The notes: a model not told the origin generated them from the sequence alone. Shown: positions 40,378-64,000, counted from the first letter of the stretch. The stretch is 64,000 nt of DNA from an uncultured Spirochaetota bacterium (GCA_963768055.1 CAVYGN010000001.1:480001-544000); one strand, 5' to 3'. A program made the numbers and translations.

Positions 40378-41646
40378 ACGGTTAACTTTATAAAGATTAA
40401 AGATACTTTTTGCGTCCTGCCATGGGTGCATTTATTTATCCACAATACCGGAGAACTGAAAGCCTGCCTGGTTTCACAACTATCTTTAGTTAAGGATGAT
40501 AATTCAAGGGAATTTAATGTATCCGATATCGATGACCTGAACGCTATTATGAATTCGAAAATCCTTAAAAAAATCAGGCTCAATATGCTCAAAGGAATAT
40601 GGAATAATACATGCAACAGATGCATGGAACCCGAAAAAGCCGGCGGGTGCATGGAAAGGATCTGGTTTAATAATTTTTTTAAAAATGATATTCTTCGTCT
40701 TTTAAACAATACAAGGGAAGATGGATCGATCGACCCTAAGATATTATTTCTGGATATCAGATTGGGAAACACTTGTAATTTAAGCTGCAAGATGTGTTTT
40801 CCCTATACCAGTAAGAATGTTTTAAAGGATATTGAGAAGATATACCCTGAAAAAAAAGGATATATAAGCCGTTTTAAAGAAATAAAGTGGTTAAAAGACC
40901 CTGTTATCTGGAAGAAGATTTATGGATTAATACCGCATTTAAAGTATGTTTCCCTTGCCGGAGGGGAACCCATGATTATTCCTGAAGCGGCAAATTTTCT
41001 TGAAAAATGTATTACAATGGGCTATTCCCATAATATTGTTGTAAGATATTCCACCAATGTTACAGTGATACGTGAGGGCATAGAAAAGTTGTGGCGGGAA
41101 TTTTCAAAGATAAGGCTGGTATGCAGTATAGATGGATATAATGAAATGAATAATTATGTCCGTTATCCGTCTAATTGGGAGGCGATAAATTCCAACTTGA
41201 AGAAATATGAACGTTATCATAAAGAATATAACCTGGAACTTGTGCAAATAAATACATGCGTTCATGTTATTAATGTTTTTTATCTTAGTGAACTTTATGA
41301 ATATTTAACTTCATGCGAATTTGATTTTATCAGTCCGGCTCCGATGCTTTCCGCGGTGGATAATCCCGAATATCTTAGCTGTAAAATTTTACCCCTGAAA
41401 ATGAAAGAAGAAGTAAAAAATTACCTGATTCAGACAAGGGAAAAATATCGAAATAAAATACCCGGACAATATCTGCAAAATTTAAATTATTTCGATTACA
41501 TTATTGATAATATGTATCTGGAACAAAGAGAAGATTTATTGCCGGTTTTCATTGATTTGAATGATAGATTTGATAAATTGAGGAACCAGGATATTCTTAA
41601 AATAGCCCCGAGATTAAAAGAACTTATGGATAAAAAAAATGGATAA
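40378..41646 (+). CDS. radical SAM enzyme with an N-terminal twitch-like Cys domain
   Basis: FCVLPWVH (upstream of the track start at 40426), CNRC, GNTCNLSCKMC, AGGEP, SIDG; SD GGAGGT followed by an in-frame ACG at 40378. Confidence 0.88.
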   Translation, partial: TVNFIKIKDTFCVLPWVHLFIHNTGELKACLVSQLSLVKDDNSREFNVSDIDDLNAIMNSKILKKIRLNMLKGIWNNTCNRCMEPEKAGGCMERIWFNNFFKNDILRLLNNTREDGSIDPKILFLDIRLGNTCNLSCKMCFPYTSKNVLKDIEKIYPEKKGYISRFKEIKWLKDPVIWKKIYGLIPHLKYVSLAGGEPMIIPEAANFLEKCITMGYSHNIVVRYSTNVTVIREGIEKLWREFSKIRLVCSIDGYNEMNNYVRYPSNWEAINSNLKKYERYHKEYNLELVQINTCVHVINVFYLSELYEYLTSCEFDFISPAPMLSAVDNPEYLSCKILPLKMKEEVKNYLIQTREKYRNKIPGQYLQNLNYFDYIIDNMYLEQREDLLPVFIDLNDRFDKLRNQDILKIAPRLKELMDKKNG

Positions 41647-43084
41647 GAATTTAATTCGATTAGAACATAGCGGGTCTTTTCATAACAAAATATTTATGGT
41701 TAATTGGAATATGACAAATATCTGCAACTTTTCATGCCCCTATTGCAATATTCATGATGGCTCAAGAAAATGGCCGGATTATAAAACGGTTATCAGTTTT
41801 ATTGATAAGATTTGCGCCTATTATATGCGTGAAAAGAAAACGATCTATTTCCAATTAACCGGCGGTGAAATCACTCTTAACCGGGACTTGTTTAAAATAG
41901 CCGATTATTTACATCAAAAGGGATGCTGGGTCGGTTTAATTTCAAATGGCAGCCAGAGTAAAGAATACTGGGAAAAGTTAAAAGACGGGCTCGATTTTAT
42001 TTATCTTTCCTTCCATCCGCAATTTATGAAGAAAGAACATTTTATTAATGTCGTCGAGCTGCTTCATAATGAAGTAACGACGCATGTGAATATAATGATG
42101 GAGTCGAATTCATTTGAAATATGTAAAGATGTCGGCAGGGAAATCAGCGAAAGAATAAATAATATTTCAATGTCTTATCAGCCTCTGGTTAAAGCCCTTG
42201 GAAGTGATTATACATTATTTGACTACACAAGGGAACAACTGGATGAAATTATGAGATTGGAAAAACAAAAGCATATTGCATGTTCCAGGAAAATGAAGAC
42301 TATTCGTGGAACAATGAAAGAAATTTATAATGATGGATTTGAAAATGAAATCAACCAGCCGGAATTACTGGCTGCCGGGAAAAACAATTGGATTGGATGG
42401 AATTGCTGGGCCGGTTTAGAAAGCATTGGAATTAAACAAGAAATAATTTACAGGTCTGTCTGCTGCAGGCAGGATGAAATCGGGAACATAAGAGATGAAA
42501 ATATATCATTCCCATGCGGTCCCGTCGTTTGCAGGACTAATAATTGTACAGACTTTACAACGACAAAAAGAATAAATTTAAAAAACATCTATTATTTCGA
42601 GAATGAAGAAATGAGAAAATTCAAATTGAATTTCCTGGAATTGGATTGGACGGCCGCTTCCGATAGTGTTGAAGGCGGGAAAAGCATTGCAAAAATAACA
42701 GAAGTATCTGGAAAAGGATTGAAAGGGAAATTGATAGTCCGGTTAAGTCAGCTAGGATATTATTATTCTATCATATCCTTCCCATGGAATTTCCAAATTG
42801 ATTTTATCGTTAAAGGGCTGCTGATAAAAATGAATCTGACCAAAGCTAAAATTTTAACTATTCAATGTCCGATTTATTCGGTTAATGATTACGATCATTA
42901 TCAGACACAGATAATCGGTGAGGGTGAACAGGAATATGTAATCGATTTTAATAACCTCCGCCAGCAAGGCTTTGGTGTCAGGACCGAATGGAATGCAACC
43001 GGAATAAAAGAGATCCAATTTATTAATGAGTATTATAAAAATGAAATTGATATTGAGATAAAGGAGATCTATCTATTGTATTAA
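41639..43084 (+). CDS. radical SAM enzyme with a C-terminal CIA30/CBM-like domain
   Basis: NICNFSCPYC, TGGEIT, ISNG, SFHP, GWNCWAG; C-terminal WTAASD..GGKS...DYD.Y...F..LRQQGFG. Confidence 0.85.
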   Translation: MDKNLIRLEHSGSFHNKIFMVNWNMTNICNFSCPYCNIHDGSRKWPDYKTVISFIDKICAYYMREKKTIYFQLTGGEITLNRDLFKIADYLHQKGCWVGLISNGSQSKEYWEKLKDGLDFIYLSFHPQFMKKEHFINVVELLHNEVTTHVNIMMESNSFEICKDVGREISERINNISMSYQPLVKALGSDYTLFDYTREQLDEIMRLEKQKHIACSRKMKTIRGTMKEIYNDGFENEINQPELLAAGKNNWIGWNCWAGLESIGIKQEIIYRSVCCRQDEIGNIRDENISFPCGPVVCRTNNCTDFTTTKRINLKNIYYFENEEMRKFKLNFLELDWTAASDSVEGGKSIAKITEVSGKGLKGKLIVRLSQLGYYYSIISFPWNFQIDFIVKGLLIKMNLTKAKILTIQCPIYSVNDYDHYQTQIIGEGEQEYVIDFNNLRQQGFGVRTEWNATGIKEIQFINEYYKNEIDIEIKEIYLLY

Positions 43085-43126
43085 TGAAACCGAACTTTCA
43101 TTTCGGGAATAATAATAAAAACGACA

Positions 43127-43212
43127 GGAAGTCTTTGCCGATAGGCGCGGACTTCCTTTTTTTATTCAAATATCAGGAAAGGTGTAATCCTGTCGGTGCG
43201 GTCGACGGAAAT
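43127..43212 (+). promoter_or_regulatory. bipartite palindromic element, copy C
   Basis: GGAAGTCTTTGCCGATAGGCGCGGACTTCC(T)7...GTGTAATCCTGTCGGTGCGGTCGACGGAAAT. Confidence 0.8.
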
Positions 43213-43297
43213 ATTTGGAAAAGATAAACTTAGGTATAAAAAATCATTGTGTGTAAAAAAGTTTATTTATTCAAATTTTACTTTATGGAGGAATGTT

Positions 43298-43564
43298 ATG
43301 GAAAGAAGTTTTGCGATCATGGAAAAAGTTAAAAAGTTATTAGGTGAAGTCGTCGGTAAACCCTCACTTCCCGCTACATTAACCGGCTTGACGGATATTA
43401 TAGCGGATATAGGGCTGAATTCAGTTCAAATGATAAACTTTGTCCTTGTACTGGAAGATGAATTCGCGTTTGAAATAAATTTTGAAAAACTGGATTACTC
43501 AATATTTGAAAGCATCGACACTTTATGCGAATTCATAGGTAACAGTACCGCCAAGGAACAATAA
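43298..43564 (+). CDS. acyl/aminoacyl carrier protein (BtrI-like)
   Basis: 88 aa after GGAGG; IGLNSVQMINFVLVLEDEF (Ser attachment site in an NS variant). Confidence 0.85.
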   Translation: MERSFAIMEKVKKLLGEVVGKPSLPATLTGLTDIIADIGLNSVQMINFVLVLEDEFAFEINFEKLDYSIFESIDTLCEFIGNSTAKEQ

Positions 43565-43604: not shown

Positions 43605-44588
43605 ATGAATAAAGGCAAGTTACCATTACATTATGCTCATGAGAATATCAAGCATGCGAATATGCTGGTGGTGGGCTGGCAATACGGCGACAATTGCAAC
43701 CTTAAATGCTCCTATTGTCCGTTATGTTTGCACAGCGGATCAACCAAATGGCTGGAGCTGTCGGTTTCAAAGAAATTTATCGATAAAATTATATCCTATT
43801 ATAAAGACCGCCTGGGTAAAGACATCTATTTTGATTTTTCAGGCGGTGAAATCACCCTGTATCAGGAATTGATCGAATTGGTAAATTATATAAAAGCGAG
43901 GGGATGTTATTCGGGTATTTGCACAAATGGTAAAAGAAGCATCGACTATTGGGAAAAAACAGCCCCTTACCTGGATCACATAAATCTCAGCTATCATCCC
44001 GGATTCAAGTATAAAGATTTATTTTTCCGGGTTGTTCAATATCTTCAAGATAAGGTTTCCTGCCACATTAATATTATGATGCACCCTGATTATTTCGATG
44101 AATGTGAAGAATTGGGGCTGAAAATATCGAATTCAATCCGCAACGCGTCGATCAGCTTTCAGGCTCTGTATATATTGCTCGGCGTCCCGTCTTTAATGAG
44201 TTACTCAAATGATCAATTATCGAGTCTCAAAAAACTGAACAAAGAAACCAGAATATTTTGGGATAAGGAGCCCTTTACATACAGGGGAAGAATGAAAAAG
44301 ACATATATCGATCATACGTCTGACACAATAACGCAGCCCGACATAATAATTAATGAAGAAAACCACTGGAAGTCATGGAAATGCTGGGGCGGGCTGGAAC
44401 AGATTGTAATAAACAAGAAGGAAGAGGTTTTCAGAGCATGGTGCGAGCAGGATAAAATCGGTAAAATCAGGGATGCCGACCTGATATTCCCGGGAAACCC
44501 CGTAATCTGCAAAAAAGACACATGTTCATGCGGTTTTGACGTACTCTGCACTAAAAGTAATATGTCTTCTGGATCAGGTATTTTATGA
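43605..44588 (+). CDS. radical SAM enzyme, paralogue of 41639..43084
   Basis: CNLKCSYC, SGGEIT, CTNG, SYHP, WKCWGG, C-terminal CKKDTCSCGFD. Confidence 0.9.
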   Translation: MNKGKLPLHYAHENIKHANMLVVGWQYGDNCNLKCSYCPLCLHSGSTKWLELSVSKKFIDKIISYYKDRLGKDIYFDFSGGEITLYQELIELVNYIKARGCYSGICTNGKRSIDYWEKTAPYLDHINLSYHPGFKYKDLFFRVVQYLQDKVSCHINIMMHPDYFDECEELGLKISNSIRNASISFQALYILLGVPSLMSYSNDQLSSLKKLNKETRIFWDKEPFTYRGRMKKTYIDHTSDTITQPDIIINEENHWKSWKCWGGLEQIVINKKEEVFRAWCEQDKIGKIRDADLIFPGNPVICKKDTCSCGFDVLCTKSNMSSGSGIL

Positions 44589-45937
44589 ATGGAAAAACAG
44601 TTGTCATGGGTATGTTTGACTCTGAAAAATTCTGGAGAGATGAGAAATCAACCAAGCTGCCTGAAATCATTGACAACTCATCAAATAATATCGTATCAAC
44701 AATGGATGAATTGTTATTTCCACTATGCGGAAAAGAGGACCTTCTCTTAACCAGGTACAGGTTTCAACCTGAATTAAAAAGTTATCTGGACAGTATTGGT
44801 ATTTCATTTAACAGCAATGAAAAGGATCTTCTGGATGTGAATAAAGAGGCGGCCGATTCTAAAGATAAATGCGTTTTTGAGCTTTTAAACAGTCAGAGGC
44901 AAAATTGTTATTTCAAGAATTTACTTAAAGGTTTTTCCACAATAAACACCTATGCCATTCTCCCAAATACCGCGTCAGCATACAAAAATTGGGGTTTGGG
45001 TGAAATTAAGCCGGCGTATGAAATTGTTAAAAAAGTAAACTCAAAAATTTACTCGCATGAGGTTTGTGAACGTATCGGTATAAAAAATTATGGAATGATC
45101 ATAAATAAAAGCAATGAACTCGAAAAGGCAGCTGTAAGATATGGAAACGGACGGGGATTTTTGATAAAAGACCCATATGGTGTCTCCGGAAAAGGAAACT
45201 TATTAATAAGCTCGCGAAAGATGCTCGGAATTATAGAAAAATATTTGGCCTTCCAGGAAGGAAAAGGGTTATCAACCCGGTTCCTGGTTGAACCGTATCA
45301 TGATAAGGTTCATGACTTTTCCTGCCAGATAATAATCGGCCAAAATGGGAAACATGAGGTTTTATCGGTACAGGACATTTATAATCAGTATTTTTCCTAT
45401 TCCGGTTCAATGAGCGCTGATCGGGAATTTATAGATTTCCTGGATGATAATAATTATTTCAATATTATAAGAAAGACAGCCGGAGAATTAGCCGGAGAAG
45501 GCTATATAGGAAATGTTTGTATTGATTCCATGATTTTACAGAACGGCGAGATTGTGCCAATAGTTGAAATTAATGCCAGGAAATCAATGGGATTGATTAA
45601 TTATTACCTTGACAAGTTCCTCGCCCCTTTTTCAGCAAAAAGTTATTTATCATTCTTCTCTGCCGGTTATAAAAACGATATTAAATTTGATGAAATCCTG
45701 AGTAAGTTCAGGGTAAGCGGTTTATTATTTTGCCCTGAAAAAGGATCCGGCCTTATACCATTATCCTGTAATACTTTGTTTATTAACCGGAATAGAGGGC
45801 AAACATCAGGCAGAGGTTCGTTGTATATGGGAAAATTTTATTTTTCAGCTGCGGCGAACCTGCCCGCAGAAAGACAAAACATAACCGGCGATGCTGATAA
45901 GATTTTAAAATCGCTGAATCTTTCAATATATAATTGA
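44585..45937 (+). CDS. ATP-grasp ligase (BtrJ-like, pre-ATP-grasp plus ATP-grasp)
   Basis: VNSKIYS, IKDPYGVSGKG, LVEPY, CIDSM, PIVEINAR. Confidence 0.85.
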   Translation: MNGKTVVMGMFDSEKFWRDEKSTKLPEIIDNSSNNIVSTMDELLFPLCGKEDLLLTRYRFQPELKSYLDSIGISFNSNEKDLLDVNKEAADSKDKCVFELLNSQRQNCYFKNLLKGFSTINTYAILPNTASAYKNWGLGEIKPAYEIVKKVNSKIYSHEVCERIGIKNYGMIINKSNELEKAAVRYGNGRGFLIKDPYGVSGKGNLLISSRKMLGIIEKYLAFQEGKGLSTRFLVEPYHDKVHDFSCQIIIGQNGKHEVLSVQDIYNQYFSYSGSMSADREFIDFLDDNNYFNIIRKTAGELAGEGYIGNVCIDSMILQNGEIVPIVEINARKSMGLINYYLDKFLAPFSAKSYLSFFSAGYKNDIKFDEILSKFRVSGLLFCPEKGSGLIPLSCNTLFINRNRGQTSGRGSLYMGKFYFSAAANLPAERQNITGDADKILKSLNLSIYN

Positions 45938-45948
45938 TGAGGAAACCG

Positions 45949-47605: not shown

Positions 47606-49711
47606 ATGGAAAACAGATGCGATTTCGATTCGCAGAGGATTAATTTCTGGAATAATACTTATAATCTTATTAAGCATTTAAGTTACAAAGTATATGTCAA
47701 TTTCGATTGGGCAACATTCAAGGATAGAAAATTCCCCGTCATAGGCGCCGTGCATATAGACAATCTGGCCATGCTAAAAAAGAGCCTTTTGGATAACCAA
47801 ATCTTTATAACGAATATCCTGACACCTCATTACAGGGGGGTTTATTTTGAATCCTCCCCGGAATGCGCCGGGTTGTTTATAGCCCTGACAAAAGAGACGG
47901 ACACATTTAAACAAGATTTCGGTGAACTCAGGGATTTTGGAAGGGAGCATAATATCGATGGACTGGCTTTAATCGATGAATTATCCAAATCACTTCTTCT
48001 GACTAATATCGGCTTTCTATTATATGATATGGCCGGTATCTATAATCAGGACTTCCGGGAGATACAATCTGTTAACGATATAGATCCTTCGAAGATATTT
48101 TTCTGGTACAAAATCTGCGGCGTTATAAAAACAGCGGAAACTTCTGTAAATAATTTCAAGGTCATAATTGACCCCTATTGGAAAACTTTTCAAGATAGAA
48201 AATTCCCGGTCATAGGTACTGTACATATAGATGATTTGAAAGTTTTAAAAAAAAGCCTGTCTGACAATCACCTGCTTGTAAGCGACCTCCGGACCCGTCA
48301 TTATAGGGGAATCTATTTTGAATCCTCCCCGGAATGCGCCGGGTTGTTTATAGCACCTATAAAGGAGACAGATACATTTAAACAAAATCTCGGTGAACTC
48401 AGGGCTTTTGGAATGGAGAATAATATAGAGAGTTTGTATCTGATGGATGAGTTATCTGAAGAAATTTTATTGAATAATATTGAGTATATGTTAAATAGTA
48501 TGGCCGGGATCAGTCATAAGGATTTTATTGAAATACAATCGGGAAATGCCTGTTTCAATCCCTTAAAAACGGCTTTCTGGTGTGACATCTATTCTTTGAT
48601 TAAGCGGAACAAATATTCGGTTTATTTGGATTTTGACTGGCAGACTTTTAAAAAGCGAAAATTACCCGTCGTCGGATCGATAAAAACAAGCGATATTGAA
48701 CTTTTAAGAAATCGACTGGAGGAATTTAAATTTGAAACAAACGTTATTAAGACCTTAAATTATTCGATCCTCTATTTTGAATCTGACAGTGATTTATCCG
48801 GTCTATTTTTATCCTTTAAAGATGAAGCGGCGGATATGGACCTGCGTATTATCGATTCAGACCTTGAGTTTACAATCCTGTCAGAACTAAGAAATGCAGG
48901 CAGGAAGCATCGCCTTGAAAATCTGTTTAACCTGGATTTTTTATCGAGCTCCCTGATTAAGCGGTGCCTGGAACAGAATATTGCGGAAATCCTGGGAATC
49001 CCTCTGGATGAAATCAGGGTCATCACGTATAAAAACAGCCATCTTGAATACATAAGAAATTATCTGGATTACAAAAACAAAAGAAAAGATCCCCGTCATG
49101 ATATTAGCCATAAAAGCAATAAGACACTGGAGGAGAATATCAATTTCTTCAGTGCCGTTTATTACCTGGAAATCGAACTAATATCGGAAATCCTGAAAGG
49201 ACAATCTGTTTCCATGCATGATGTCGGTACGAATGTCGCCCAGTTCCCTCTTTTATTGAGCGCCCTTTCCTGTGAAGAGTTATTCGGGCTGGAAATTTCT
49301 CGAATTATCGCTTCAGATATCGCCTGGACAGGAGAAGGGTATATTAAAAATATCTTAAAGGATAATGAACGGTATAGACCGATCAGTTTTATCAAACTTG
49401 ATTTGATGAACGAAATTCAAAATTCTCCCGTAGCTGATGTAGTCATAGCGAATGATGTTTTGGAACACCTGCCTGATGAAGAGGCCTCTTTTTCGGTATT
49501 ATCAGGGCTCTGGGAAAAAACAGGAAAGCTTATGATAGCCCATGTCCCGATTGAAGACACACCCAATCCGCTATGGGATCATCATGTAACTTTTAATGAA
49601 AAAAAAATACGGAATTGGGTAAACCGGCTGCCGGGGACATCTAAACGATATTACAGCGGTAAAAAGCAGACCCTTACACGTTATGGATTTTTTATTGTTT
49701 CAAAAATATAA
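47606..49711 (+). CDS. paralogue with 3 copies of the ~155-aa unit and a methyltransferase-like domain
   Basis: Near-identical MENRCDFD start; unit x3; MHDVGTN, IIASD, DVVIANDVLEHL. Confidence 0.7.
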   Translation: MENRCDFDSQRINFWNNTYNLIKHLSYKVYVNFDWATFKDRKFPVIGAVHIDNLAMLKKSLLDNQIFITNILTPHYRGVYFESSPECAGLFIALTKETDTFKQDFGELRDFGREHNIDGLALIDELSKSLLLTNIGFLLYDMAGIYNQDFREIQSVNDIDPSKIFFWYKICGVIKTAETSVNNFKVIIDPYWKTFQDRKFPVIGTVHIDDLKVLKKSLSDNHLLVSDLRTRHYRGIYFESSPECAGLFIAPIKETDTFKQNLGELRAFGMENNIESLYLMDELSEEILLNNIEYMLNSMAGISHKDFIEIQSGNACFNPLKTAFWCDIYSLIKRNKYSVYLDFDWQTFKKRKLPVVGSIKTSDIELLRNRLEEFKFETNVIKTLNYSILYFESDSDLSGLFLSFKDEAADMDLRIIDSDLEFTILSELRNAGRKHRLENLFNLDFLSSSLIKRCLEQNIAEILGIPLDEIRVITYKNSHLEYIRNYLDYKNKRKDPRHDISHKSNKTLEENINFFSAVYYLEIELISEILKGQSVSMHDVGTNVAQFPLLLSALSCEELFGLEISRIIASDIAWTGEGYIKNILKDNERYRPISFIKLDLMNEIQNSPVADVVIANDVLEHLPDEEASFSVLSGLWEKTGKLMIAHVPIEDTPNPLWDHHVTFNEKKIRNWVNRLPGTSKRYYSGKKQTLTRYGFFIVSKI

Positions 49712-49726: not shown

Positions 49727-50860
49727 ATGAAATACAGCTTTGTGATATCAACCCGCAATAATAACGAGTTTCTAAAAAACACCCTTGAGGCTTTAAATTA
49801 TCAGCATGGTTTCGGACATTATAATGTCATATTGGTTGATGAAGGTTCTTCTGACTATGCTAACGTCAGGGGAACAAACCGCAACTATGAATTGAAATAT
49901 TTTCACATTGAACGCTGCAGAGATTCATTCGGGGCACGGGCCAGGAACTACGGCTGGAAGCAGGCAGACGGGGATATAATTGTCTTTATCGATTCGGACA
50001 TAATAGTCAGGCCGGATTACCTCGATGAACTGGACAGGTGTTTCGGTATGAGCGGCGATATCGCCGTGATAGGGAACATGCTTCTTCCTAAAACCAGGAT
50101 TAAATACAGTGATGTTACAAGCTGCCGCATTTTTAAAAAAAATCATTTTGACAGTAAAAAGACTAATAATCTTGAGTTCAGACATTATTTATTTGAGAAA
50201 ACTTCATATAACATCAACGCCATTATCGATCCATGGATGAAGTTTAACAGCTGCAATGCCGCAATCCCCAAAAAATGGCTCGAAATAATCGGCGGTTTTG
50301 ATGAATCTTTTATCGGACGCGGATTTGAGGATATTGATCTGGGTTATGTTTTATCAGATATGAAACTGCAAATCGTCATCGATCCGAAATTGGAAGTGAT
50401 CCGCCAATATCATGGCAAAAGCAATAATTTTGTAATAAATAATGAGAACATGGAGGAATATGACAGAAACATGGGACTTTTTTTAGCCAAGCATCCTGAT
50501 GCTCTCAAGCTGCTCAGTGAAGCGGCATATATTTTATCGAAGGGGAAAATCTCCTATAAAGAAACGCTATCGGATGATGGCGTGAGGAATATTGTATTGG
50601 ATTTCAAGGAAAAAAAACTATTGGGCGATTTTAAAACCATGATTCTGAAGTCATTGACAAAAAAAAATACACTATTAATTATCCAGGATTATGTTGAAAA
50701 GACTGATCTGGATATCTGGTTACAGTTGCCCAAAGATAATGGAATTATAAAAGCAAGATACTACCCTATGTCGAAAAGGATTGACCAAAAAGAGGCTGAT
50801 AGTTTTCTGAGAAAAAATATTAATACTATGCGTTTTTTGATTCAAGGGAGAGTGGATTGA
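49727..50860 (+). CDS. GT2 glycosyltransferase (degenerate paralogue)
   Basis: ARARN, FIDSD, GGFDE, ED; altered VISTRN/VDEGS motifs. Confidence 0.82.
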   Translation: MKYSFVISTRNNNEFLKNTLEALNYQHGFGHYNVILVDEGSSDYANVRGTNRNYELKYFHIERCRDSFGARARNYGWKQADGDIIVFIDSDIIVRPDYLDELDRCFGMSGDIAVIGNMLLPKTRIKYSDVTSCRIFKKNHFDSKKTNNLEFRHYLFEKTSYNINAIIDPWMKFNSCNAAIPKKWLEIIGGFDESFIGRGFEDIDLGYVLSDMKLQIVIDPKLEVIRQYHGKSNNFVINNENMEEYDRNMGLFLAKHPDALKLLSEAAYILSKGKISYKETLSDDGVRNIVLDFKEKKLLGDFKTMILKSLTKKNTLLIIQDYVEKTDLDIWLQLPKDNGIIKARYYPMSKRIDQKEADSFLRKNINTMRFLIQGRVD

Positions 50861-50861: not shown

Positions 50862-51959
50862 ATGACGGATAATACAGTATCGATACTATGCTCCGGAGTC
50901 GCGCTCGGTGTGTATATACCCGCGCTTCTGACTGATTATCAATTGCGGGAGCTCGGCGTGAAAACCGAACTCCTGGTATTGGAGAACTTATTAAAAGAGG
51001 ATAAAAGGAAAATAATAAGGGAAAGCAAAAAGGCTTTCCACGGCAGTTTCAGGGTAGCTCTGGCGGGGCAGAAGATGGCCAGGGACTTAAAACCTAATTT
51101 TGATTCCAGGGCCGTTTATGATTTATTCAAGCTCTGGGATAAAGAAAACCGGAGGCGCTTCATTGTCTTTTCGGGTTTCTGGCTTTCAGTGTTAAAGGAG
51201 TACTGTGGAACGGCCGGTCAGGAAGGCTTATGTATCGAGATAGTCCATATGGACGCCGCCGTTTCGGCATCATGGAAACTCTTCATGGAAGAGAGCAAAG
51301 CCTTTAATAATATATGGATATTCGGCCGGAAGGGTAACAATCTGGCCTATGAAATACCGGTCGGGGGAAAAAAGCCCGAGGCATACGGGGAGAGGCCTGA
51401 CCGGTATGTTATACATGGCGGGGGCTGGGGGATGGGCACTTACCAGGGCAGGATCCCCGAACTTACAGACATGGGATTTAATCTTGATATTGTCGCATAT
51501 TACATAGAAGAGGCGCTGGAAAGGGTAAAGGGCAGAAGGTATTATATGGTGGACCCGGAATGGCAGCCATGGACGGAAAACAGTGAGGGCCGCTATGAAT
51601 TCCCGCCGTTCGGGGAGATCGGGGTAAATATAAATATATCATATAAAAACAAGACGGAATACCATGAACTCTTTGATGTGATAAGGAAGAGCAGGGCGGT
51701 AATTAGCAAGCCCGGGGGGGCGACCCTGATGGATTCTCTGGCTTCGGCCACGCCCTTGGTCATGCTTGAGCCGTTCGGTGATTATGAGAGGAAAAACTCC
51801 GAGTTGTGGGAAGGCCTGGGATACGGGATCCCGTACGAAAAATGGAAGAGTTCGGGATTTTCATCCGTGGTGCTGGAGAAACTGCATAAAAATCTTATGA
51901 AAGCCGGGGGGAAGCTGGTTAATTATCCCCGGGATTATTTCGAGAGGAATTTTAAATGA
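50862..51959 (+). CDS. GT-B fold glycosyltransferase-like protein (UDP-glucuronosyltransferase/MGDG-synthase-like)
   Basis: SGVALGVYIP, HGGGWGMG, ISKPGGATLMDSL, PFGDYE..N. Confidence 0.72.
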   Translation: MTDNTVSILCSGVALGVYIPALLTDYQLRELGVKTELLVLENLLKEDKRKIIRESKKAFHGSFRVALAGQKMARDLKPNFDSRAVYDLFKLWDKENRRRFIVFSGFWLSVLKEYCGTAGQEGLCIEIVHMDAAVSASWKLFMEESKAFNNIWIFGRKGNNLAYEIPVGGKKPEAYGERPDRYVIHGGGWGMGTYQGRIPELTDMGFNLDIVAYYIEEALERVKGRRYYMVDPEWQPWTENSEGRYEFPPFGEIGVNINISYKNKTEYHELFDVIRKSRAVISKPGGATLMDSLASATPLVMLEPFGDYERKNSELWEGLGYGIPYEKWKSSGFSSVVLEKLHKNLMKAGGKLVNYPRDYFERNFK

Positions 51960-54320: not shown

Positions 54321-56099
54321 ATGAAGAATTCTGATTATTCCGAAGAAGCTGTTAAGGGAAAAAAATATTCGATAAAAGAAATGTTCGGAATATTCCTTCC
54401 CCAGTTCAGGAAATATATTAAACCTCACATTGGTCTTTTATTGCAGGCCGTATTTTGTCTTTTTATTTTAAACATGCTCTGGCTGATGCTTCCTTTTTTC
54501 CAAAAGCATTTTATAGATGACGGTCTGATAGGTAAGAATTTTGATCTTCTGCTTAAAATCGTTATCGCTATGATGTTAACTCAGCTTTTAACCGCAACAA
54601 TATTTACCATGTGGGAATATCTCTACAACTTTCTTTCGGGCAGGCTTTGTTATAATGTCGAAAAAGATCTGTATTTTCATATCCTCAAACTGCCCATGTC
54701 GTATTTTGACAGTCACAGGGCGGGAGAGCTTCTGAAAAGGGTGCTGGATTCTTTATCGCTCCTGAATATAATCAATATTTTTCTCTTTGATATACTCAAT
54801 AATTTTTTTGTCATTATCATAGGTATATCAGCCGGATTATTGATAAGCCCTATTCTCGTTTTAATCAGCTTGATCTTTATCCCTATTTCTCTGACAAACA
54901 ATCATTTCCAGGGAAAGGTTTCAAGGAAAAATGAAGAGGAAAGGTGGGATGTCGACAGGGCTTTAAACTCGGAGCAAACGGAAGCCCTGGTAGGCATCAG
55001 GACTATCAAGGCATTCGGAATAGAGTTAAAAGTTTACAGGAAGTATATGCTTTTAAGGCTTAAATACAGGCAGATAGAGTTTAAATTCAAAAGAAAATAT
55101 GTCGGCCTGAATATTGTGAATAATTTTTTTGGAAGCCTTGAAAATTTCCTCATTATGATAACCGCGGGTTTTTTAGTCATCGGAGGGAAATTGACAATAG
55201 GCGACTGGATGGCTTACCAGATAATCATTTCAAGGGTCACTACGCCCCTGAAACAGCTCATAGACGTCAATGTCAAACTGCAGACAAATATAGTTACCTT
55301 AAAACGTCTGGACGACCTGATCCAGGAGCAGGAAGAAAAGCATCTGATGAATAAAGACCTCAGATTGACAAAGGGGACTATTGTATTTAAAGATGTAAGT
55401 TTCAGCTACGCTAATAACAGCAATATATTAAGCGGAATAAACTTTAAAATTGATAAAGGGAAGTCCCTGGCGCTGGTGGGCAGAAGCGGTGTGGGAAAAT
55501 CCACACTGGCAAATCTTATCCTTAACTTTTACCTGCCGACTTCAGGGGAAATCCTGATAGATGATGTGAATATTAGGGAATATAATGTAAGAAACCTCCG
55601 GGATGATATTTCCATGGTCCTGCAGGACACCTACCTGTTTTCAGGGACAATAATGGATAATCTCAAACTCTGCTCGGCGTCAAAAGATTACAGCGAGATT
55701 GAAGAAGCCTGCAGGATAGCATACGCTCATGAATTTATAATCGATCTTCCGAAGGGGTATAATACCGAGGTAGGCGAGCGCGGGACGAAACTCTCGGGAG
55801 GCCAGAAACAGAGAGTGGCGCTGGCCCAGGCGATATTAAAAAAGCCGAAAATCCTTATTTTAGACGAGGCGACCAGTCATCTCGACATCGAGACCGAACA
55901 GAAAGTCCAGGAGGCGTTTCATTATTTAATTCAAAAAAGTACATCCATTATTATTGCCCATCGATTATCCACGATTAAAAATGCTAATATTATAGCGGTG
56001 CTTGAAGAAGGAAGAATAGTTGAAACGGGTACGCATGATGATTTAATAGAAAAAGATTCATATTATAAAAAAATGTATACCAGTTATCTCTCAATTTAA
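54321..56099 (+). CDS. ABC exporter, fused TMD-NBD (HlyB/MsbA type, no C39 peptidase domain)
   Basis: 6-TM region; GRSGVGKS, LSGGQKQR, ILDEATS, IAHRLST. Confidence 0.95.
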   Translation: MKNSDYSEEAVKGKKYSIKEMFGIFLPQFRKYIKPHIGLLLQAVFCLFILNMLWLMLPFFQKHFIDDGLIGKNFDLLLKIVIAMMLTQLLTATIFTMWEYLYNFLSGRLCYNVEKDLYFHILKLPMSYFDSHRAGELLKRVLDSLSLLNIINIFLFDILNNFFVIIIGISAGLLISPILVLISLIFIPISLTNNHFQGKVSRKNEEERWDVDRALNSEQTEALVGIRTIKAFGIELKVYRKYMLLRLKYRQIEFKFKRKYVGLNIVNNFFGSLENFLIMITAGFLVIGGKLTIGDWMAYQIIISRVTTPLKQLIDVNVKLQTNIVTLKRLDDLIQEQEEKHLMNKDLRLTKGTIVFKDVSFSYANNSNILSGINFKIDKGKSLALVGRSGVGKSTLANLILNFYLPTSGEILIDDVNIREYNVRNLRDDISMVLQDTYLFSGTIMDNLKLCSASKDYSEIEEACRIAYAHEFIIDLPKGYNTEVGERGTKLSGGQKQRVALAQAILKKPKILILDEATSHLDIETEQKVQEAFHYLIQKSTSIIIAHRLSTIKNANIIAVLEEGRIVETGTHDDLIEKDSYYKKMYTSYLSI

Positions 56100-56112: not shown

Positions 56113-57105
56113 ATGAAGAGAGAACCATTAAAATACCTTAAAGTGATTTTCATAACCGTTATTCTGCTTTTCATCACGGTTTTAACAACTTTTATTCTGA
56201 TCAACAGTATTGATTATGTTGAAGTACGGGGAGAGATCAAACCCCTGGAATTCCAGGACATCACGCCTAAAATATCGGGTATTATTAAGAAATGTTATTT
56301 TAAGGACGGCGATCCTGTCAATGCCGGAAACTTAGTCCTGGAAATGGATTCTAAAGAATACAAGCTTTCGCTGGCTTCTCTCAGCAGCAAAAGAGAATTA
56401 CTGCTTTCCAGGAACAATTTTCTGAAATCCGACATGGAATTATTTTTGATGGAGAGGTCGCTTTTTTTAAATAAATTAAAAAAGGATCTGAATGATCTGA
56501 ATATTAAAAAAAACAATGAGATGATCTCACAAAAAGAATATGACAATGAAATTTACAAACTCGAGGTAGAGGAACTTTCGGGACGTGAAAGATTATTGAC
56601 GTTTGAAAATGATCTGAAGCAATCGGCCAGGGAGATGGATTCTATTTCAGCGGATATTGACACTATTAAAGACAAAATTGACAAATGCAGGGTCGAATCT
56701 CAAATTGACGGCATCATTGTAGACGAAGACAGCAGGATCAAGGAGGGGATATACTATAATTCCGGTGAAATAATTCAAAAGATATTTGGCAACAACTCAG
56801 TCTACGCGGAAGTCTATATTCCGGACAGGAAGGTGATTAAGGTCGAGATCAACCAGAAGGTGAAATTATTTGTAGATGCTATACCTTACAGTAAATATAG
56901 AACATTTGAAGGGAGGCTTGTGAGCCTGAAAGAAACAAAAACAAGGAACCGGACTGAAGGTTATATTGGTAAAGTTTTAATTGATGACCCGTTTTTTAAA
57001 ATAAGAAATATTAACGATGTGCAGACTAAAAAATTGTTTTTCGGGTTAAAACTTAACGCACGCATATATACCGGGAAATGCGGCTTCCTTGATTTTTTAT
57101 ATTAA
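56113..57105 (+). CDS. HlyD-family membrane fusion protein
   Basis: Single N-terminal TM, ITPKISG..DGDPV..G lipoyl-like halves around a coiled coil, DAIPY..Y..FEG. Confidence 0.85.
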   Translation: MKREPLKYLKVIFITVILLFITVLTTFILINSIDYVEVRGEIKPLEFQDITPKISGIIKKCYFKDGDPVNAGNLVLEMDSKEYKLSLASLSSKRELLLSRNNFLKSDMELFLMERSLFLNKLKKDLNDLNIKKNNEMISQKEYDNEIYKLEVEELSGRERLLTFENDLKQSAREMDSISADIDTIKDKIDKCRVESQIDGIIVDEDSRIKEGIYYNSGEIIQKIFGNNSVYAEVYIPDRKVIKVEINQKVKLFVDAIPYSKYRTFEGRLVSLKETKTRNRTEGYIGKVLIDDPFFKIRNINDVQTKKLFFGLKLNARIYTGKCGFLDFLY

Positions 57106-57114: not shown

Positions 57115-58464
57115 ATGAGAAGGTTGAAATTAAGTATTATCATCATGATCATTTTCTTTCCCTGTGCTTTCTTCGCATTAGATCTAGAATCAGCTGTTTT
57201 AATGGCCTTAACGAACAGGGAGGATCTGTCTATTATTTCCAATCAAATAATTCTGCAGAAAAAAACAATAGAAAGCAAATTTCATGCCTTATCGCCAGCC
57301 TTTTCACTCGATCTCGGCTACAGCCAGGCGTATTATTCGAATAGTCAAATTTACTCTAACGATCTGAACTCCGGAGTTTCAATGAACTACCCCATTTATG
57401 ACGGCGGATTAAAAAATATTGAAGTGGAGGAGGAAAATGACCGTCTGAAGCTCATGGAACTGGAATACAGGATGAGAAATTCTGATGTTATATGCAGGGT
57501 GAAAAGTTATTTTTACGATATTATTCTCTATCAAACCTTGCTTGAATTGCGTAAAAAAAACCTGGAGCAGTCTCTCCTTGAAAAAAAAAATGCAGAGATT
57601 TTATTTAAGCAAAAGCTTATTGATCCGCTTGCATATAAGTCAGCCGGATATTATTCCGCAGTTTCTGAATTCCAGCTTAAACAGGCACTTAACGAGCTTG
57701 AAGAAAAAAAGGATTTCCTTAAGAATTACATCCTTTATTCCAATTTTGATAAGCTGGAGGGCAATTTACAGCAGGATGAAAGTTTTGACCTTTCTAACAA
57801 GCTGCTAGTGGACTACCGGATCGCCTATCTTCAGATTCAAAAAGAAATGATCAATCTATATTATAAAAAAACAATTGCCTCGCGGGGCTGGAAAATCGAT
57901 CTCTATTCGAGCCTTTACTGGGATTCTCTCCAATCTGATTCGCTGGGCAACTATCCGTATAATTCGGGATTTCAGAATCAGCTTATGCTTGAATTAGGAA
58001 TAAAGGCATATTTCCCGATTTCTGATGACATGTCTCTATCGGTCAAGCCGGGATCGGCTTATTCTCCCGAATTATTCTATAACGGTTTTTCGGCGAAAGG
58101 GTCCCTTCATCTTATGGATGAAAACAACTCCTTCCTTGACAGTCGGAAAGGTTATTGGAATTCAAAAAAGCAAGAGGTGGACTTGGATTACGAAATCAGG
58201 GATCTGGAATCCAAAAGAAATCAGACTCAGGATAAGCTCCAGGAATTAAAACTGGACATTTTCGCTTCTTCAAATAACATGGAATTATCATTAATGAATT
58301 ATGAAAACGTTGAGATACAATATTCGAATAACGGTAAGACCGCCAAAGAGCTGCTGGATGCAAAAATACAGAAAATAGAATCCGAGGTCAGCAATCTTCG
58401 CGCGATTTATAATTATAACTGCCTGGTCTGGAAGGCCCAGTCATTTTATTGGGCGGGGGATTGA
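57115..58464 (+). CDS. TolC-family outer membrane efflux protein
   Basis: Signal peptide, A...N start, YPIYDGG, VKSYFY, Y..G...ELLDA; follows ABC and HlyD genes. Confidence 0.75.
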   Translation: MRRLKLSIIIMIIFFPCAFFALDLESAVLMALTNREDLSIISNQIILQKKTIESKFHALSPAFSLDLGYSQAYYSNSQIYSNDLNSGVSMNYPIYDGGLKNIEVEEENDRLKLMELEYRMRNSDVICRVKSYFYDIILYQTLLELRKKNLEQSLLEKKNAEILFKQKLIDPLAYKSAGYYSAVSEFQLKQALNELEEKKDFLKNYILYSNFDKLEGNLQQDESFDLSNKLLVDYRIAYLQIQKEMINLYYKKTIASRGWKIDLYSSLYWDSLQSDSLGNYPYNSGFQNQLMLELGIKAYFPISDDMSLSVKPGSAYSPELFYNGFSAKGSLHLMDENNSFLDSRKGYWNSKKQEVDLDYEIRDLESKRNQTQDKLQELKLDIFASSNNMELSLMNYENVEIQYSNNGKTAKELLDAKIQKIESEVSNLRAIYNYNCLVWKAQSFYWAGD

Positions 58465-63545: not shown

Positions 63546-63561
63546 ATTATAAGGAAAAGAT

Positions 63562-64000
63562 ATGAAATACAGTTTTGTGATTCCAACCTTCAATAATAAA
63601 ATATTGTTAAAGAACACGCTTGAAGCGCTGAATTATCAGCCGGGTTACGGCCATTATGAAGTGATAGTCGTTGACGACGGATCATCGGATGACACATATA
63701 AATACATCAAAGGAACGGCCCGGAATTATAATCTAAAATATTATTATCTTGAACGCTGCAGGGATTCCTGCAGGGCCAGGACAAGAAATCATGGATGGAA
63801 AAACGCCGAAGGCGAAATCATCGCTTTCATCGATTCCGATATCATTGTAAAACCGGATTATCTCTCTGAGCTGGACAGGTGTTTTTCAATGGGCAGGGAT
63901 ATTATCGTCATCGGCAACAGGCTTTTACTCAACGATCAGACAGCTTACCTGGATGTAGCTAGCGGTGATATTTTCAAAAAATACCGTTTCGATGGTAATC
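63562..64000 (+). CDS. GT2 glycosyltransferase, third paralogue, truncated by the window end (not in the ORF track)
   Basis: Manual translation MKYSFVIPTFNNKILLKNTLEALNYQ...VDDGSSD...RARTRN...FIDSD; open to the end of the window. Confidence 0.9.
   Translation, partial: MKYSFVIPTFNNKILLKNTLEALNYQPGYGHYEVIVVDDGSSDDTYKYIKGTARNYNLKYYYLERCRDSCRARTRNHGWKNAEGEIIAFIDSDIIVKPDYLSELDRCFSMGRDIIVIGNRLLLNDQTAYLDVASGDIFKKYRFDGN

Follow-up and report, generated by a model that had tools for sequence, protein, structure and literature searches.

In mycofactocin, a small aglycone receives a methylated glucan chain through the enzymes MftF and MftM, and the twitch/SPASM radical SAM enzymes known to act on sugars carry out oxidation or epimerisation. 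Another precedent is the BtrJ/BtrI/BtrK scheme of butirosin, which PMC11350588 describes alongside the parallel schemes of closthioamide (CtaD/E/F) and fluvirucin (FlvN/L/O). Here we describe a predicted spirochaete operon of about 26 kb, with 19 genes, that bears a likeness to each of these systems. Most of it lies within the 64,000-nucleotide stretch of DNA that was analysed (the window).

Results

Extent and Regulation of the Cluster

A sequence-only reading had proposed at least 18 co-oriented genes at 40378..64000, in a cluster continuing beyond the window. All 18 open reading frames (ORFs) were present, co-oriented between 40.4 kb and the window end, and the cluster did run on, either for about 2.8 kb (to orf94) or for 3.5 kb (to a nitroreductase gene). 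Junctions between cluster genes are mostly overlapping or of 22 nt or less. The longer gaps are 291 nt 5' of the first gene, 111-213 nt 5' of the ACP gene (the value varies with the start codon assumed), and 40 nt 3' of the ACP gene.

Two copies of a dedicated upstream element and a divergent regulator had been said to accompany the cluster, and both are present, the regulator being split into two ORFs:

36795..40134, minus strand: divergent hybrid regulator, here two ORFs (38614-40134 and 36795-38645); Pfam HTH_18 and Peripla_BP_3
40208..40326, plus strand: upstream element, copy 1, about 120 nt; direct repeat families D1/D2
43108..43227, plus strand: upstream element, copy 2, directly 5' of the ACP gene

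The two copies are about 85% identical to each other, and a genome search revealed no others. In order, the element comprises a hairpin, a T-run, a -10-like box and a second hairpin; its consensus fold has 29 pairs, 1 of them compensatory, and it matched nothing in Rfam at E<=1. It occurs only at the starts of two units, i.e., rS1-rS2 and ACP-to-orf94 (genes listed below), and the two copies probably place both units under one regulator. The latter consists of a membrane domain, an AraC HTH, a LacI-type periplasmic-binding-like domain and a second AraC HTH; six TM-like windows lie in its first ORF, and the binding domain is divided across the two ORFs. In a genome of the same genus (G003), the orthologue is one ORF of 1111 aa, 72-76% identical, and a partial copy of the element lies upstream of a regulator paralogue.

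A Conserved Four-Gene Core

Four genes form a conserved core:

43298..43564, plus strand: stand-alone ACP (core gene 1)
44585..45937, plus strand: divergent ATP-grasp ligase (core gene 2), the presumed ACP-loading enzyme
50862..51959, plus strand: predicted GT-B glycosyltransferase of GT1/GT28 type (core gene 3), from an AF2 model and Foldseek
51975..53147, plus strand: rS4, radical SAM/SPASM (core gene 4); PF04055 57 bits, SPASM 46.6 bits

The ACP, the ligase and the GT-B enzyme had all been named in the sequence-only reading. The PP-binding match of the ACP (27.8 bits) lies above the cut-off of 20.8, and its phosphopantetheine-attachment Ser, within a G-L-D/N-S motif, is invariant across 13 aligned loci. 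The ligase proved real but divergent: it matched no Pfam family at E<=0.001 (ATP-grasp_3 was reached at E 0.0019), and the only PDB match of its profile was 8ynd, an 'ATP-grasp peptide ligase' (7.6e-7). Its look-alikes in an ESM language-model comparison were clusters labelled 'butirosin ACP--L-glutamate ligase' (BtrJ), at 0.97, which we regard only as a lead.

Although the GT-B protein matched no Pfam family, its AF2 model (pLDDT 90.3, pTM 0.91) predicts a two-Rossmann GT-B fold, with 335 Foldseek matches in the PDB at E<=0.001 and TM values of 0.55-0.61 for the leaders. Fold matches include CalG3 (3.3e-9), MurG (5.0e-9), the elaiophylin glycosyltransferase, SnogD, LanGT2 and MGD1. By sequence profile, its sole PDB match was UgtP (9wde), a processive diacylglycerol glucosyltransferase (5.1e-6). 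No NCBIfam family was reached by rS4 (best 84 bits versus a cut-off of 380); its profile matched SkfB best in the PDB (9.5e-12) and the auxiliary-cluster region of BtrN (4M7T) at 1.9e-6. Apart from the Pfam domain matches of the ACP and rS4 given above, no core member reached a curated family cut-off.

Relatives of the ligase were encoded by 492 of 514 candidate stretches in public species genomes, and their partners were counted in the best 80 of these 492 loci. An ACP and a GT-B gene each lay within 8 kb of the ligase gene in 78 of the 80, an rS4-type radical SAM/SPASM gene (at least 40% identity) was nearby in 68, and all three accompanied the ligase in 67. The GT-B gene directly followed the ligase gene in 74 of 79 loci, and an ABC-type ATPase cluster was represented in 54 of the best 80. 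Hosts include Paenibacillus, Clostridium, Nostoc, methanotrophs and Spirochaetota. Because the core is so widespread, the candidate "new system" becomes this core together with a lineage-specific tailoring shell. Full-text literature searches found no characterised cluster of the same composition, in line with the earlier reading, and brought up no described product.

In other core loci the additions are a BtrH_N acyltransferase (42.3 bits, above cut-off) and, variously, an Orn/DAP-type PLP decarboxylase, a second ACP together with an AMP-ligase, a KASIII-like enzyme or a condensation domain; these would be different routes to make or hand over a carrier-bound acyl unit. One of them (L042) combines the same core with BtrH- and BtrK-type genes. 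Most related loci carry genes for ABC-2-type transporters and FkbM methyltransferases, some with NDP-sugar epimerase/dehydratase genes, and the Nostoc loci contain sulfotransferases, APS kinase, pyruvyl transferase and GT2 genes of polysaccharide look.

Co-conservation had been set as a test of the whole cluster. The congeneric genome G003 keeps the synteny from ACP to orf94 at 62-88% identity, in the order ACP, rS3, ATP-grasp, MT, GT2, GT-B, rS4, GT2, ABC, HlyD, TolC, three DLH-rSAMs, fusion and orf94; it lacks rS1, rS2 and the nitroreductase. Two Spirochaetota contigs, L008 and L010, retain part of this combination and order, and the distribution of the cluster is patchy (2 of 40 relatives).

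The Tailoring Shell

The genes around the core are:

40399..41646, plus strand: rS1, N-terminal-twitch radical SAM; NF033640 (N_Twi_rSAM) 311.8 bits versus a cut-off of 170
41639..43084, plus strand: rS2, radical SAM, PF04055 53.8 bits; Cys-rich C-terminal part and an extra tail of about 150 aa
43605..44588, plus strand: rS3, radical SAM adjoining the ACP, PF04055 39.7 bits
45934..47589, plus strand: MT1, two copies of an orphan domain of about 150 aa plus a class I SAM methyltransferase
47606..49711, plus strand: MT2, a methyltransferase with the orphan domain in three copies
49727..50860, plus strand: GT2a, PF00535 and PF10111; soluble, no TM-like windows; shared C-terminal extension of about 130 aa
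53137..54309, plus strand: GT2b, PF00535 87 bits
58471-60144, 60167-61843 and 61848-63545, plus strand: DLH-rSAM trio, tandem paralogues
63562..66477 (extended coordinates; window end 64000), plus strand: fusion of GT2, class I methyltransferase and MiaB/RimO-like radical SAM, 971 aa, by Pfam
66474-66758 (extended coordinates), plus strand: orf94, 94 aa, which ends the cluster and is kept in both genomes

Seven radical SAM enzymes had been counted, and seven ORFs in the window do match PF04055 in Pfam (at 40426, 41639, 43605, 51975, 58471, 60167 and 61848), each with exactly one CxxxCxxC motif; the total for the cluster, however, is eight, the eighth domain lying inside the 971-aa gene that crosses the window end. 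There are 59 PF04055 matches in the 3.69-Mb genome, and the eight within this 26 kb compare with about 0.4 expected from the mean density. The start codon of rS1 is uncertain, with a family match from position 40399 onwards (333 bits in a genome search) and no in-frame ATG, GTG or TTG ahead of the GTG at 40426. The best PDB match of rS2, tetraether lipid synthase (7tol), reached only 3.4e-5. In G003 rS3 is syntenic and 78% identical, and relatives of it also adjoin an ACP in L010. In rS2, rS3 and rS4 the CxxxCxxC motif falls at residues 29-53.

Both repeat/methyltransferase-like proteins and all three GT2 enzymes of the sequence-only reading were found, the third GT2 being the N terminus of the fusion. 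The methyltransferase fold of MT1 matches Hen1, RebM and ChlM (Z 15.4-15.7), and a search of 1.84 billion proteins (E<=0.001) gave only 16 representatives of the orphan repeat domain. The best PDB match of GT2b is the chondroitin synthase K4CP (9.2e-22).

Each DLH-rSAM has a dienelactone-hydrolase-like N-terminal segment, an N-terminal-twitch Cys-rich region and a radical SAM domain. Only about 45 residues of the first segment align to DLH structures, with the nucleophile region outside the alignment. The copy at 58471 scored 28.3 bits on PF04055, below the 29.5 cut-off, and 30.8 when the frame took in its neighbours. Because the trio reached only 60-70 bits on NF033640, against the cut-off of 170, we regard them as relatives rather than members of that family. 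The fused form was seen only here and on a 2.74-Mb contig holding a 66%-identical ATP-grasp (P0002). Among the matches listed, the tri-domain GT2-methyltransferase-radical SAM fusion was likewise seen once, on the same contig (the G000 copy apart). In its radical SAM part UPF0004 and Radical_SAM were found, with Cys 590, 626 and 655 in the UPF0004 part; it scored 175.8 bits on TIGR00089 (cut-off 251), and since the alignment covers model positions 9-354 of 429, no TRAM part is seen.

Carrier proteins aside, orf94 is the only small ORF conserved in the spirochaete clusters, and family searches placed it in no peptide-precursor family. A 39% identical homologue adjoins a second radical SAM cluster on C2, which also contains GT2, FkbM, ABC and DegT genes and lacks an ATP-grasp. 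Weak similarity to the SagB family (43.7 bits versus a cut-off of 78.4) was seen for the nitroreductase, which is absent from G003 and whose 5' part recurs together with orf94 at another place in the genome; this gene, at least, may be a passenger.

Local duplication of enzyme types, also proposed earlier, is borne out by identities of 40% (rS2/rS3), 55% (MT1/MT2), 49-59% (GT2s) and 82-87% (the three DLH-rSAMs). GC content forms a mosaic of 33-48% across the genes, being 48% in GT-B and rS4, 45-47% in the DLH-rSAMs and 33-40% in the others. Given this mosaic and the absence of rS1-rS2 and the nitroreductase from G003, some of the genes may lie outside the pathway. Pfam and NCBIfam searches that included the downstream extension found neither KS or NRPS genes nor genes for sugar nucleotides or a precursor peptide in the cluster, as had been stated. 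A hydropathy scan gave no membrane helices in the biosynthetic proteins, a single window in GT-B being read as its first Rossmann strand.

The Exporter

The ABC, HlyD and TolC components that had been recognised were all confirmed by Pfam and are encoded together:

54321..56099, plus strand: ABC exporter, 592 aa, fused TMD-NBD half-transporter (ABC_membrane from residue 43, ABC_tran)
56113..57105, plus strand: HlyD-type periplasmic adaptor, one N-terminal TM-like window
57115..58464, plus strand: TolC-type outer-membrane channel, PF02321 (OEP); TIGR01844 weak

The ABC exporter is 88% identical in G003 and had no peptidase (C39) domain in Pfam or NCBIfam. All NCBIfam subfamily scores were below cut-offs (HlyB 392 versus 725, HlyD 49 versus 209, TolC 30 versus 225); the exporter is tripartite and type I secretion-like by type, not a member of the named subfamilies. 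The ABC protein scored equally well on the MsbA and HlyB models, below their cut-offs, and reached 380 bits on the NHLP bacteriocin exporter model, also below cut-off.

Discussion

The reading that we prefer, tentatively and at slightly under even chances, is one biosynthetic operon whose product, made without NRPS or PKS, is a soluble, sugar-based small molecule that the cell exports; an acyl or amino unit carried on the ACP would be glycosylated, extended, methylated and radical-tailored. By analogy with BtrJ/BtrI in butirosin, the ATP-grasp enzyme would activate a carboxylate (by the same analogy, an amino acid) and load it onto the phosphopantetheine arm of the adjacent ACP. GT-B would attach the first sugar to the loaded unit or its released form; rS4 and the ACP-adjacent rS3, with rS2, may perform radical chemistry on the tethered unit or on this sugar, and the three soluble GT2 enzymes would lengthen a short oligosaccharide. 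Methylation of this chain would fall to MT1, MT2 and the methyltransferase part of the fusion, whose MiaB-like domain may add a methylthio group. The four N-terminal-twitch radical SAMs (rS1 and the DLH trio) could tailor single sugars, e.g., by oxidation or epimerisation, and the ABC/HlyD/TolC pump would move the product across both membranes.

That these genes form one unit is suggested by the G003 synteny, the tight junctions and the restriction of the element to the two unit starts; that the product is a small molecule is suggested by the GT-B fold matches to natural-product glycosyltransferases and by the solubility of the biosynthetic proteins. The aminoglycoside-type carrier-protein/ATP-grasp logic proposed earlier finds indirect support in the ACP-ligase pairing (78 of 80 loci) in the BtrH_N and decarboxylase genes of other loci and, as a lead only, in the language-model label of the ligase; the cluster itself has no BtrK- or BtrH-type gene. 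Against our preferred reading, the cluster contains no BtrK-, BtrH- or condensation-type hand-over enzyme (the two BtrH_N genes of the genome both lie outside it) and no sugar-nucleotide genes, the profile match of GT-B to a diacylglycerol glucosyltransferase fits a glycolipid equally well, and the Nostoc core loci sit among polysaccharide-like genes.

These last points lead to an explanation that we consider unlikely yet worth weighing, i.e., that the cluster builds or decorates an envelope glycolipid or glycopolymer. The ACP/ATP-grasp pair would then supply an aminoacyl or acyl group, as DltA/DltC do D-alanine for teichoic acids, GT-B would act on a lipid acceptor (MGDG/UgtP-type), and the pump would deliver the product to the outer membrane or surface. 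Consistent with this are 9wde as the sole PDB sequence match of GT-B, with MurG and MGD1 among its fold matches; the resemblance of the GT2s to chondroitin synthase and TarP-like enzymes; the ABC-2-type transporters, FkbM and occasional NDP-sugar epimerase/dehydratase genes of related loci; the sulfotransferases, APS kinase and pyruvyl transferase in Nostoc; and the equal scores of the ABC protein on MsbA and HlyB. However, family searches of the cluster gave no gene for an initiating phosphoglycosyl transferase, flippase, polymerase, chain-length determinant or lipid anchor, and a search of it for LPS, capsule or exopolysaccharide markers (Wzm/Wzt and nucleotide-sugar genes included) found none. 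In addition, all the enzymes are soluble, the best fold matches of GT-B are natural-product glycosyltransferases, and a patchy distribution is more in keeping with an accessory metabolite than with part of the envelope.

The 19 genes might instead be two or more unrelated modules lying side by side with separate products, i.e., the core, a spirochaete radical SAM/GT2/MT glycan-tailoring set and the exporter. The GC mosaic, the absence of rS1-rS2 from G003, the existence of the C2 cluster without an ATP-grasp, and the insertion of the MT1-MT2-GT2a block between the ligase and GT-B genes, which stand side by side in 74 of the other 79 loci, would all fit. Nevertheless, combination and order are kept in G003 at 62-88% identity and partly in L008 and L010, and junctions overlap across the supposed module borders; we rate this reading as quite improbable.

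Very improbable is a RiPP-type cluster, in which SPASM/twitch radical SAMs, typical peptide maturases, would act on a ribosomal peptide or small protein that was overlooked or whose gene lies outside the cluster, with GT2 glycosylation and export by the type I-like pump: the SkfB match of rS4, the NHLP score, orf94 at the cluster end in both genomes with its homologue by the C2 cluster, and the SagB-like nitroreductase speak for it, but the best 80 loci share no conserved small ORF besides carrier proteins, Pfam and NCBIfam gave no RRE/PqqD, leader peptidase or C39 domain, CxxxCxxC in rS2, rS3 and rS4 lies too close to the N terminus for a recognition domain to fit ahead of it, and the nitroreductase may not belong. 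More generally, a RiPP or LPS/capsule locus is unlikely, since the searches gave no gene for a precursor, an RRE, a peptidase or polymer assembly.

Among known systems, mycofactocin provides the only named glycosyltransferase/methyltransferase similarity of the GT2s and of the MT1/MT2 C termini (MftF and MftM, respectively), but the scores fall far short of the curated cut-offs (60-78 bits versus 280 for MftF, 22-29 bits versus 200 for MftM), and MftA, MftB, MftD and MftE are absent. BtrN (4M7T) resembles the present enzymes as a twitch/SPASM, auxiliary-cluster radical SAM in a glycoside context; however, rS4 matches the peptide maturase SkfB more closely, and four of the eight radical SAMs carry an N-terminal Cys-rich domain (NF033640 type) that BtrN does not. 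With the butirosin AHBA side-chain module (carrier protein BtrI, ATP-grasp ligase BtrJ, decarboxylase BtrK, transferase BtrH) the cluster shares a stand-alone ACP and an ATP-grasp ligase without an adenylation domain, the link of the ligase to BtrJ being drawn from adjacency to the ACP and the language-model label rather than from alignment, and related core loci carry BtrH_N-type and Orn/DAP-decarboxylase-type genes. The window cluster differs from that module in having no decarboxylase, BtrH/BtrG, monooxygenase or aminocyclitol genes. The fixed partners of the ACP-ligase pair here are instead a GT-B glycosyltransferase and a radical SAM/SPASM enzyme, neither of which is, to our knowledge, part of the AHBA module.

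Extent and Layout of the Cluster

The sequence-only reading had described at least 18 co-oriented genes running past the end of the window, and this held when ORFs were called and the downstream sequence was obtained. The source genome (3.69 Mb in two contigs) is placed in Spirochaetota by its nearest relatives, and the window is C1:480001-544000. Its plus strand carries 18 ORFs between 40.4 kb and the window end, and successive genes overlap by 4-11 nt or are separated by gaps of no more than 22 nt. Three intervals are longer, one of 291 nt upstream of the first gene, one of 111-213 nt upstream of the carrier protein (ACP) gene, and one of 40 nt downstream of the latter. The final large gene extends from the window into the downstream DNA and encodes a 971-aa protein that fuses a family-2 glycosyltransferase (GT2), a methyltransferase of class I, and a radical SAM (rSAM) domain resembling MiaB/RimO. 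Behind it lie orf94, which encodes 94 aa, and a gene of the nitroreductase family whose product starts with a signal-like segment. Convergent methyltransferase and PadR genes bound the region on this side, and we therefore place the end of the cluster ~2.8-3.5 kb past the window. The features located by coordinate are:

36795-40134 (-): divergent regulator
40426-66758: span of the GC mosaic
58471-63545 (+): three tandem rSAM paralogues (the DLH trio)
63562 onward (+): GT2-methyltransferase-MiaB-like fusion gene
66474-66758: orf94

All eight rSAM domains contain a single CxxxCxxC motif each, and eight of the 59 PF04055 matches genome-wide fall inside these 26 kb. Mycofactocin, sactipeptide, PQQ, anaerobic sulfatase, and other named rSAM families were rejected as assignments, with scores far under the curated cut-offs. 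The GC content forms a mosaic, being 33-40% from rS1 (the first rSAM gene) to the glycosyltransferase gene GT2a, 48% in the GT-B and rS4 genes, and 45-47% in the DLH trio, against a genome value of 41.5%.

The Core Proteins

The core consists of the ACP, an ATP-grasp ligase, a 365-aa protein, and the rSAM/SPASM protein rS4, none of which reached a curated NCBIfam cut-off. The ACP stands alone as a carrier protein and has an invariant Ser. The ligase fell below Pfam thresholds, being too divergent, and was recognised via PRK06524 (8e-7) in the NCBIfam search; its profile matched an "ATP-grasp peptide ligase" in the PDB (8ynd, 7.6e-7), and its homologues carry precomputed ATP-grasp family assignments. 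An ESM look-alike search, which provides a lead rather than a test, placed it beside BtrJ-labelled clusters at 0.97. The 365-aa protein had no Pfam match. Its AF2 model (pLDDT 90.3) gave 335 Foldseek matches at E<=0.001, including CalG3, MurG, the elaiophylin glycosyltransferase, SnogD, and LanGT2, and on this predicted fold it is a GT-B glycosyltransferase; its profile matched solved structures only remotely (UgtP, 5.1e-6). The matches of rS4 to solved structures were likewise remote (SkfB, 9.5e-12; BtrN, 1.9e-6), and its top curated-family score was 84 bits versus a cut-off of 380.

Distribution of the Core

The protein collection contained 432 ATP-grasp relatives at E<=0.001, and those with names were labelled only "hypothetical" or "ATP-grasp domain-containing". 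A search of species contigs (one genome per species) with the single ATP-grasp protein yielded no match; the search that succeeded used an alignment of 18 relatives as query, and 492 of its 514 candidate stretches encode a relative of the ligase. Partners were counted in the best 80 loci. An ACP gene lay within 8 kb of the ligase in 78 of these, as did a GT-B gene (78/80); an rS4-type rSAM/SPASM at 40% identity or more was present in 68/80, all three partners together in 67/80, and an ABC-type ATPase family in 54/80. The GT-B gene was immediately 3' of the ligase in 74 of 79 loci. Paenibacillus provided most of the hosts, which also included Clostridium, Lachnospiraceae, Nostoc and other cyanobacteria, Methylococcaceae, Thiothrix, Anaerolineales, and Spirochaetota. 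Paenibacillus polysaccharolyticus and Clostridium cavendishii are two cultivable hosts that have the core in its simple form. The neighbours of the core at these loci included:

Locus L042: BtrH_N acyltransferase (42.3 bits, above cut-off) and an Orn/DAP-type PLP decarboxylase
Locus L024: AMP-ligase, second ACP, and a weak BtrH_N match
Clostridium: KASIII-like enzyme
Spirochaetota MAG: condensation domain
Others: GFO/IDH/MocA oxidoreductase fused to a carrier domain
Others: FkbM and class I methyltransferases, GT2s, and an NDP-sugar epimerase/dehydratase

These neighbours are alternative routes to make, modify, or transfer a carrier-bound acyl unit in the context of a sugar. We tentatively favour, on the analysis as a whole, the view that the cluster encodes a carrier-protein-templated glycoside pathway, in which the ATP-grasp ligase would charge the ACP according to the BtrJ/BtrI scheme, a step to which the ESM placement beside BtrJ-labelled clusters adds a lead. 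Everything beyond gene content is what we infer. The cluster might instead serve an envelope glycolipid or envelope decoration, to which the likeness of the GT-B protein to UgtP and MurG and the polysaccharide-like neighbours of the core in cyanobacteria both point; we consider this unlikely, while giving it appreciable weight.

Conservation and Membership of the Cluster

Among 40 related genomes, the ligase was present in two, i.e., one of the same genus (G003, 66% identity) and one of the same family (G006, 39%). In a quick tree, the sequences from the window, the same-genus genome, two Spirochaetota contigs, and one Bacillota-labelled contig formed a fully supported set, with the G006-type sequence outside it. 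The same-genus genome has the order ACP, rS3, ligase, MT1-MT2, GT2a, GT-B, rS4, GT2b, ABC, HlyD, TolC, three DLH-rSAMs, fusion, and orf94, where MT1 and MT2 (repeat-domain methyltransferases) form one fused 1247-aa ORF. The proteins are 62 to 88% identical between the two genomes, and the synteny runs from ACP to orf94, a stretch of about 23.5 kb in the source genome. This synteny also weakens the idea that unrelated modules merely lie side by side, which we regard as improbable. The genes for rS1, rS2, and the nitroreductase are missing from the same-genus genome. The orthologue of GT2a there (L094, C1) is intact, but differs where the GT2a of the window and other GT2s have acidic motifs, and may be catalytically degenerate.

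The nitroreductase was rejected as a pathway member, being missing in the same-genus genome and having its 5' part within a 614-bp repeat found elsewhere on the same contig; it is likely to be a passenger. The two copies of the repeat (98.2% identity) lie 56 kb apart, at 66416-67029 of the extended window (C1:546416-547029) and at C1:602716-603329, and the former takes in orf94 together with ~260 bp from the 5' end of the nitroreductase gene. We retained orf94 as a cluster member because it occupies the same place in the same-genus genome and has a 39% identical homologue in a second rSAM-rich cluster on contig C2. We take it to resemble the N-terminal part of IS110-type transposases; family searches with orf94 gave no match backing this likeness.

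The Shell Enzymes

The protein rS1 is an N-terminal-twitch rSAM (NF033640, 311.8 bits versus a cut-off of 170). Its family match begins at 40399, and between 40327 and 40426 no in-frame ATG, GTG, or TTG precedes the GTG at 40426; a GGAGG lies upstream of rS1 at 40366-40370. This odd start could stem from an uncommon initiation codon or from a wrong base in the sequence. The paralogues rS2 and rS3 are 40% identical, with Cys-rich C-termini. A domain of ~150 aa precedes the methyltransferase in two copies in MT1 and three in MT2. A fold search with a model of repeat plus methyltransferase matched Hen1, RebM, and ChlM (Z 15.4-15.7), all by way of the methyltransferase domain. An ESM Atlas search with the repeat region of MT1 returned no usable match, and MT2 gave only a chance-level match against PDB sequences. 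The repeat domain had 16 representatives among 1.84 billion proteins (E<=0.001), its basic architecture being a single domain plus methyltransferase of ~390 aa.

The three GT2s (GT2a, GT2b, and that of the fusion) are soluble and 49-59% identical to one another, and chondroitin synthase K4CP is their closest match (9.2e-22). The ABC, HlyD, and TolC genes follow in succession, and the ABC protein has no peptidase domain. That the cluster makes a RiPP is very improbable, since precursor, RRE, and peptidase are all lacking.

The members of the DLH trio are 82-87% identical and share a layout. Each starts with ~45 residues that align to dienelactone hydrolases, the nucleophile region not included, and continues with a Cys-rich region of N-twitch-like type and then the rSAM core. 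In the set of candidates scored out of 5.8 billion proteins, this DLH-rSAM fusion occurred only as the three copies in the source genome and at least two on a 2.74-Mb contig that also carries a 66%-identical ATP-grasp; the nearest others in that set lack the N-terminal part. Of the GT2-methyltransferase-MiaB-like tri-domain form, there was one among the matches listed, on the same 2.74-Mb contig, the copy in the source genome not being among them; FkbM-MiaB-like and GT2-methyltransferase fusions were found elsewhere. Judged from sequence, the rare features of the shell are the DLH-rSAM fusion, the GT2-methyltransferase-MiaB-like fusion, and the methyltransferase repeat domain. Within the trio, the N-terminal alignment columns 1-200 are 89-99% identical between copies, and the middle (columns 200-330) shows the lowest identity among the genome's own copies (74-80%) but still pairs with particular copies in the same-genus genome (77% and 76%). 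This pattern in six sequences suggests that the ends have been homogenised and the middle kept distinct.

Putative Regulatory Elements

An element of ~120 nt occurs before rS1 and before ACP in two copies that are ~85% identical, with no other in the genome. Because an Rfam search of 40100-43350 found no match at E<=1, it does not belong to a described RNA family. In both copies, a T-run and then a -10-like box lie between two hairpins; of the 29 pairs in the consensus fold, one is compensatory, which, coming from two sequences, is weak evidence. In the same-genus genome, a partial copy lies upstream of a paralogous regulator gene. We read the element as a putative shared promoter/operator or a leader. 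In the divergent regulator, a membrane domain is followed by an AraC HTH, a sugar-binding-like domain, and another AraC HTH. The gene is split into ORFs of 506 and 616 aa overlapping by 32 nt, whereas the same-genus orthologue is one 1111-aa ORF; the split is either a real frameshift or an assembly error.

Other Biosynthetic and rSAM-Rich Regions

Four further regions of the genome were observed:

Window 299-14003 (+): separate, unrelated lipid-type gene cluster
Window 14000-16971 (-): 586-aa alpha/beta-hydrolase/radical SAM/SPASM fusion adjoining a 402-aa GT-B (UDPGT/GT28_C) gene
C2:1230500-1251700 (L103, L104): second radical-SAM-rich cluster, with about six rSAMs
C1:222106-230751: six more Radical_SAM matches within 9 kb, another rSAM-dense region

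The lipid-type cluster contains several ketosynthases, an AMP-ligase, an aromatic amino acid ammonia-lyase (537 bits), a FabA-like dehydratase, a 4HBT thioesterase, a B12-radical SAM, and an LpxL-like acyltransferase, and in composition resembles an aryl-polyene or flexirubin-type cluster. The hydrolase-radical SAM theme occurs again at 14000-16971. The C2 cluster has two ~570-aa FkbM methyltransferases, two ABC half-transporters, a DegT aminotransferase, an old-yellow-enzyme-type reductase, a GT2 split into ORFs of 219 and 195 aa, a sigma-54 activator with a sugar-binding-like domain, and the orf94 homologue; the ATP-grasp, ACP, and GT-B core is absent from it.

Significance and Relation to Known Systems

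Beyond the carrier-protein-templated glycoside pathway itself, a larger proposal, which we regard as possible but doubtful, is that the ACP/ATP-grasp/GT-B/rSAM-SPASM quartet represents an undescribed, widespread, NRPS/PKS-independent class for carrier-protein-templated aminoacyl glycosides, with the spirochaete its most elaborate known form. The eight rSAMs, including the hydrolase-fused N-twitch trio, and the GT2-methyltransferase-methylthiotransferase fusion would then yield a methylated, possibly thiomethylated, radical-tailored oligosaccharide, which would leave the cell through a tripartite pump of its own and serve as an antibiotic or a signal. If so, a four-gene cassette in hundreds of species, including many cultivable Paenibacillus and Clostridium strains, would make a class of glycoside isolated by nobody, and the charging of a stand-alone ACP by an ATP-grasp ligase would be a templating strategy of general use rather than a peculiarity of three pathways. 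The spirochaete form would add candidate new rSAM chemistries on sugars (N-terminal-twitch, hydrolase-fused, and MiaB-like fused to GT2 and methyltransferase), and also adds an orphan 150-aa repeat domain. These proposals are directly testable by heterologous expression, or in cultivable hosts of the simple core.

The sequence-only reading had recognised no characterised cluster of this composition, and neither did full-text literature searches for the gene combination, which had subscription journals and supplements outside their scope and returned nothing or a general review. Judged from the listing, literature on twitch domain-containing radical SAM proteins included no such cluster. Two published papers describe the BtrJ/BtrI/BtrK loading scheme, with parallels in closthioamide and fluvirucin (PMC11350588; PMC11405602). 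This is an orphan biosynthetic gene cluster, in which a core and shell without characterised counterpart are joined to a loading logic that has precedents.
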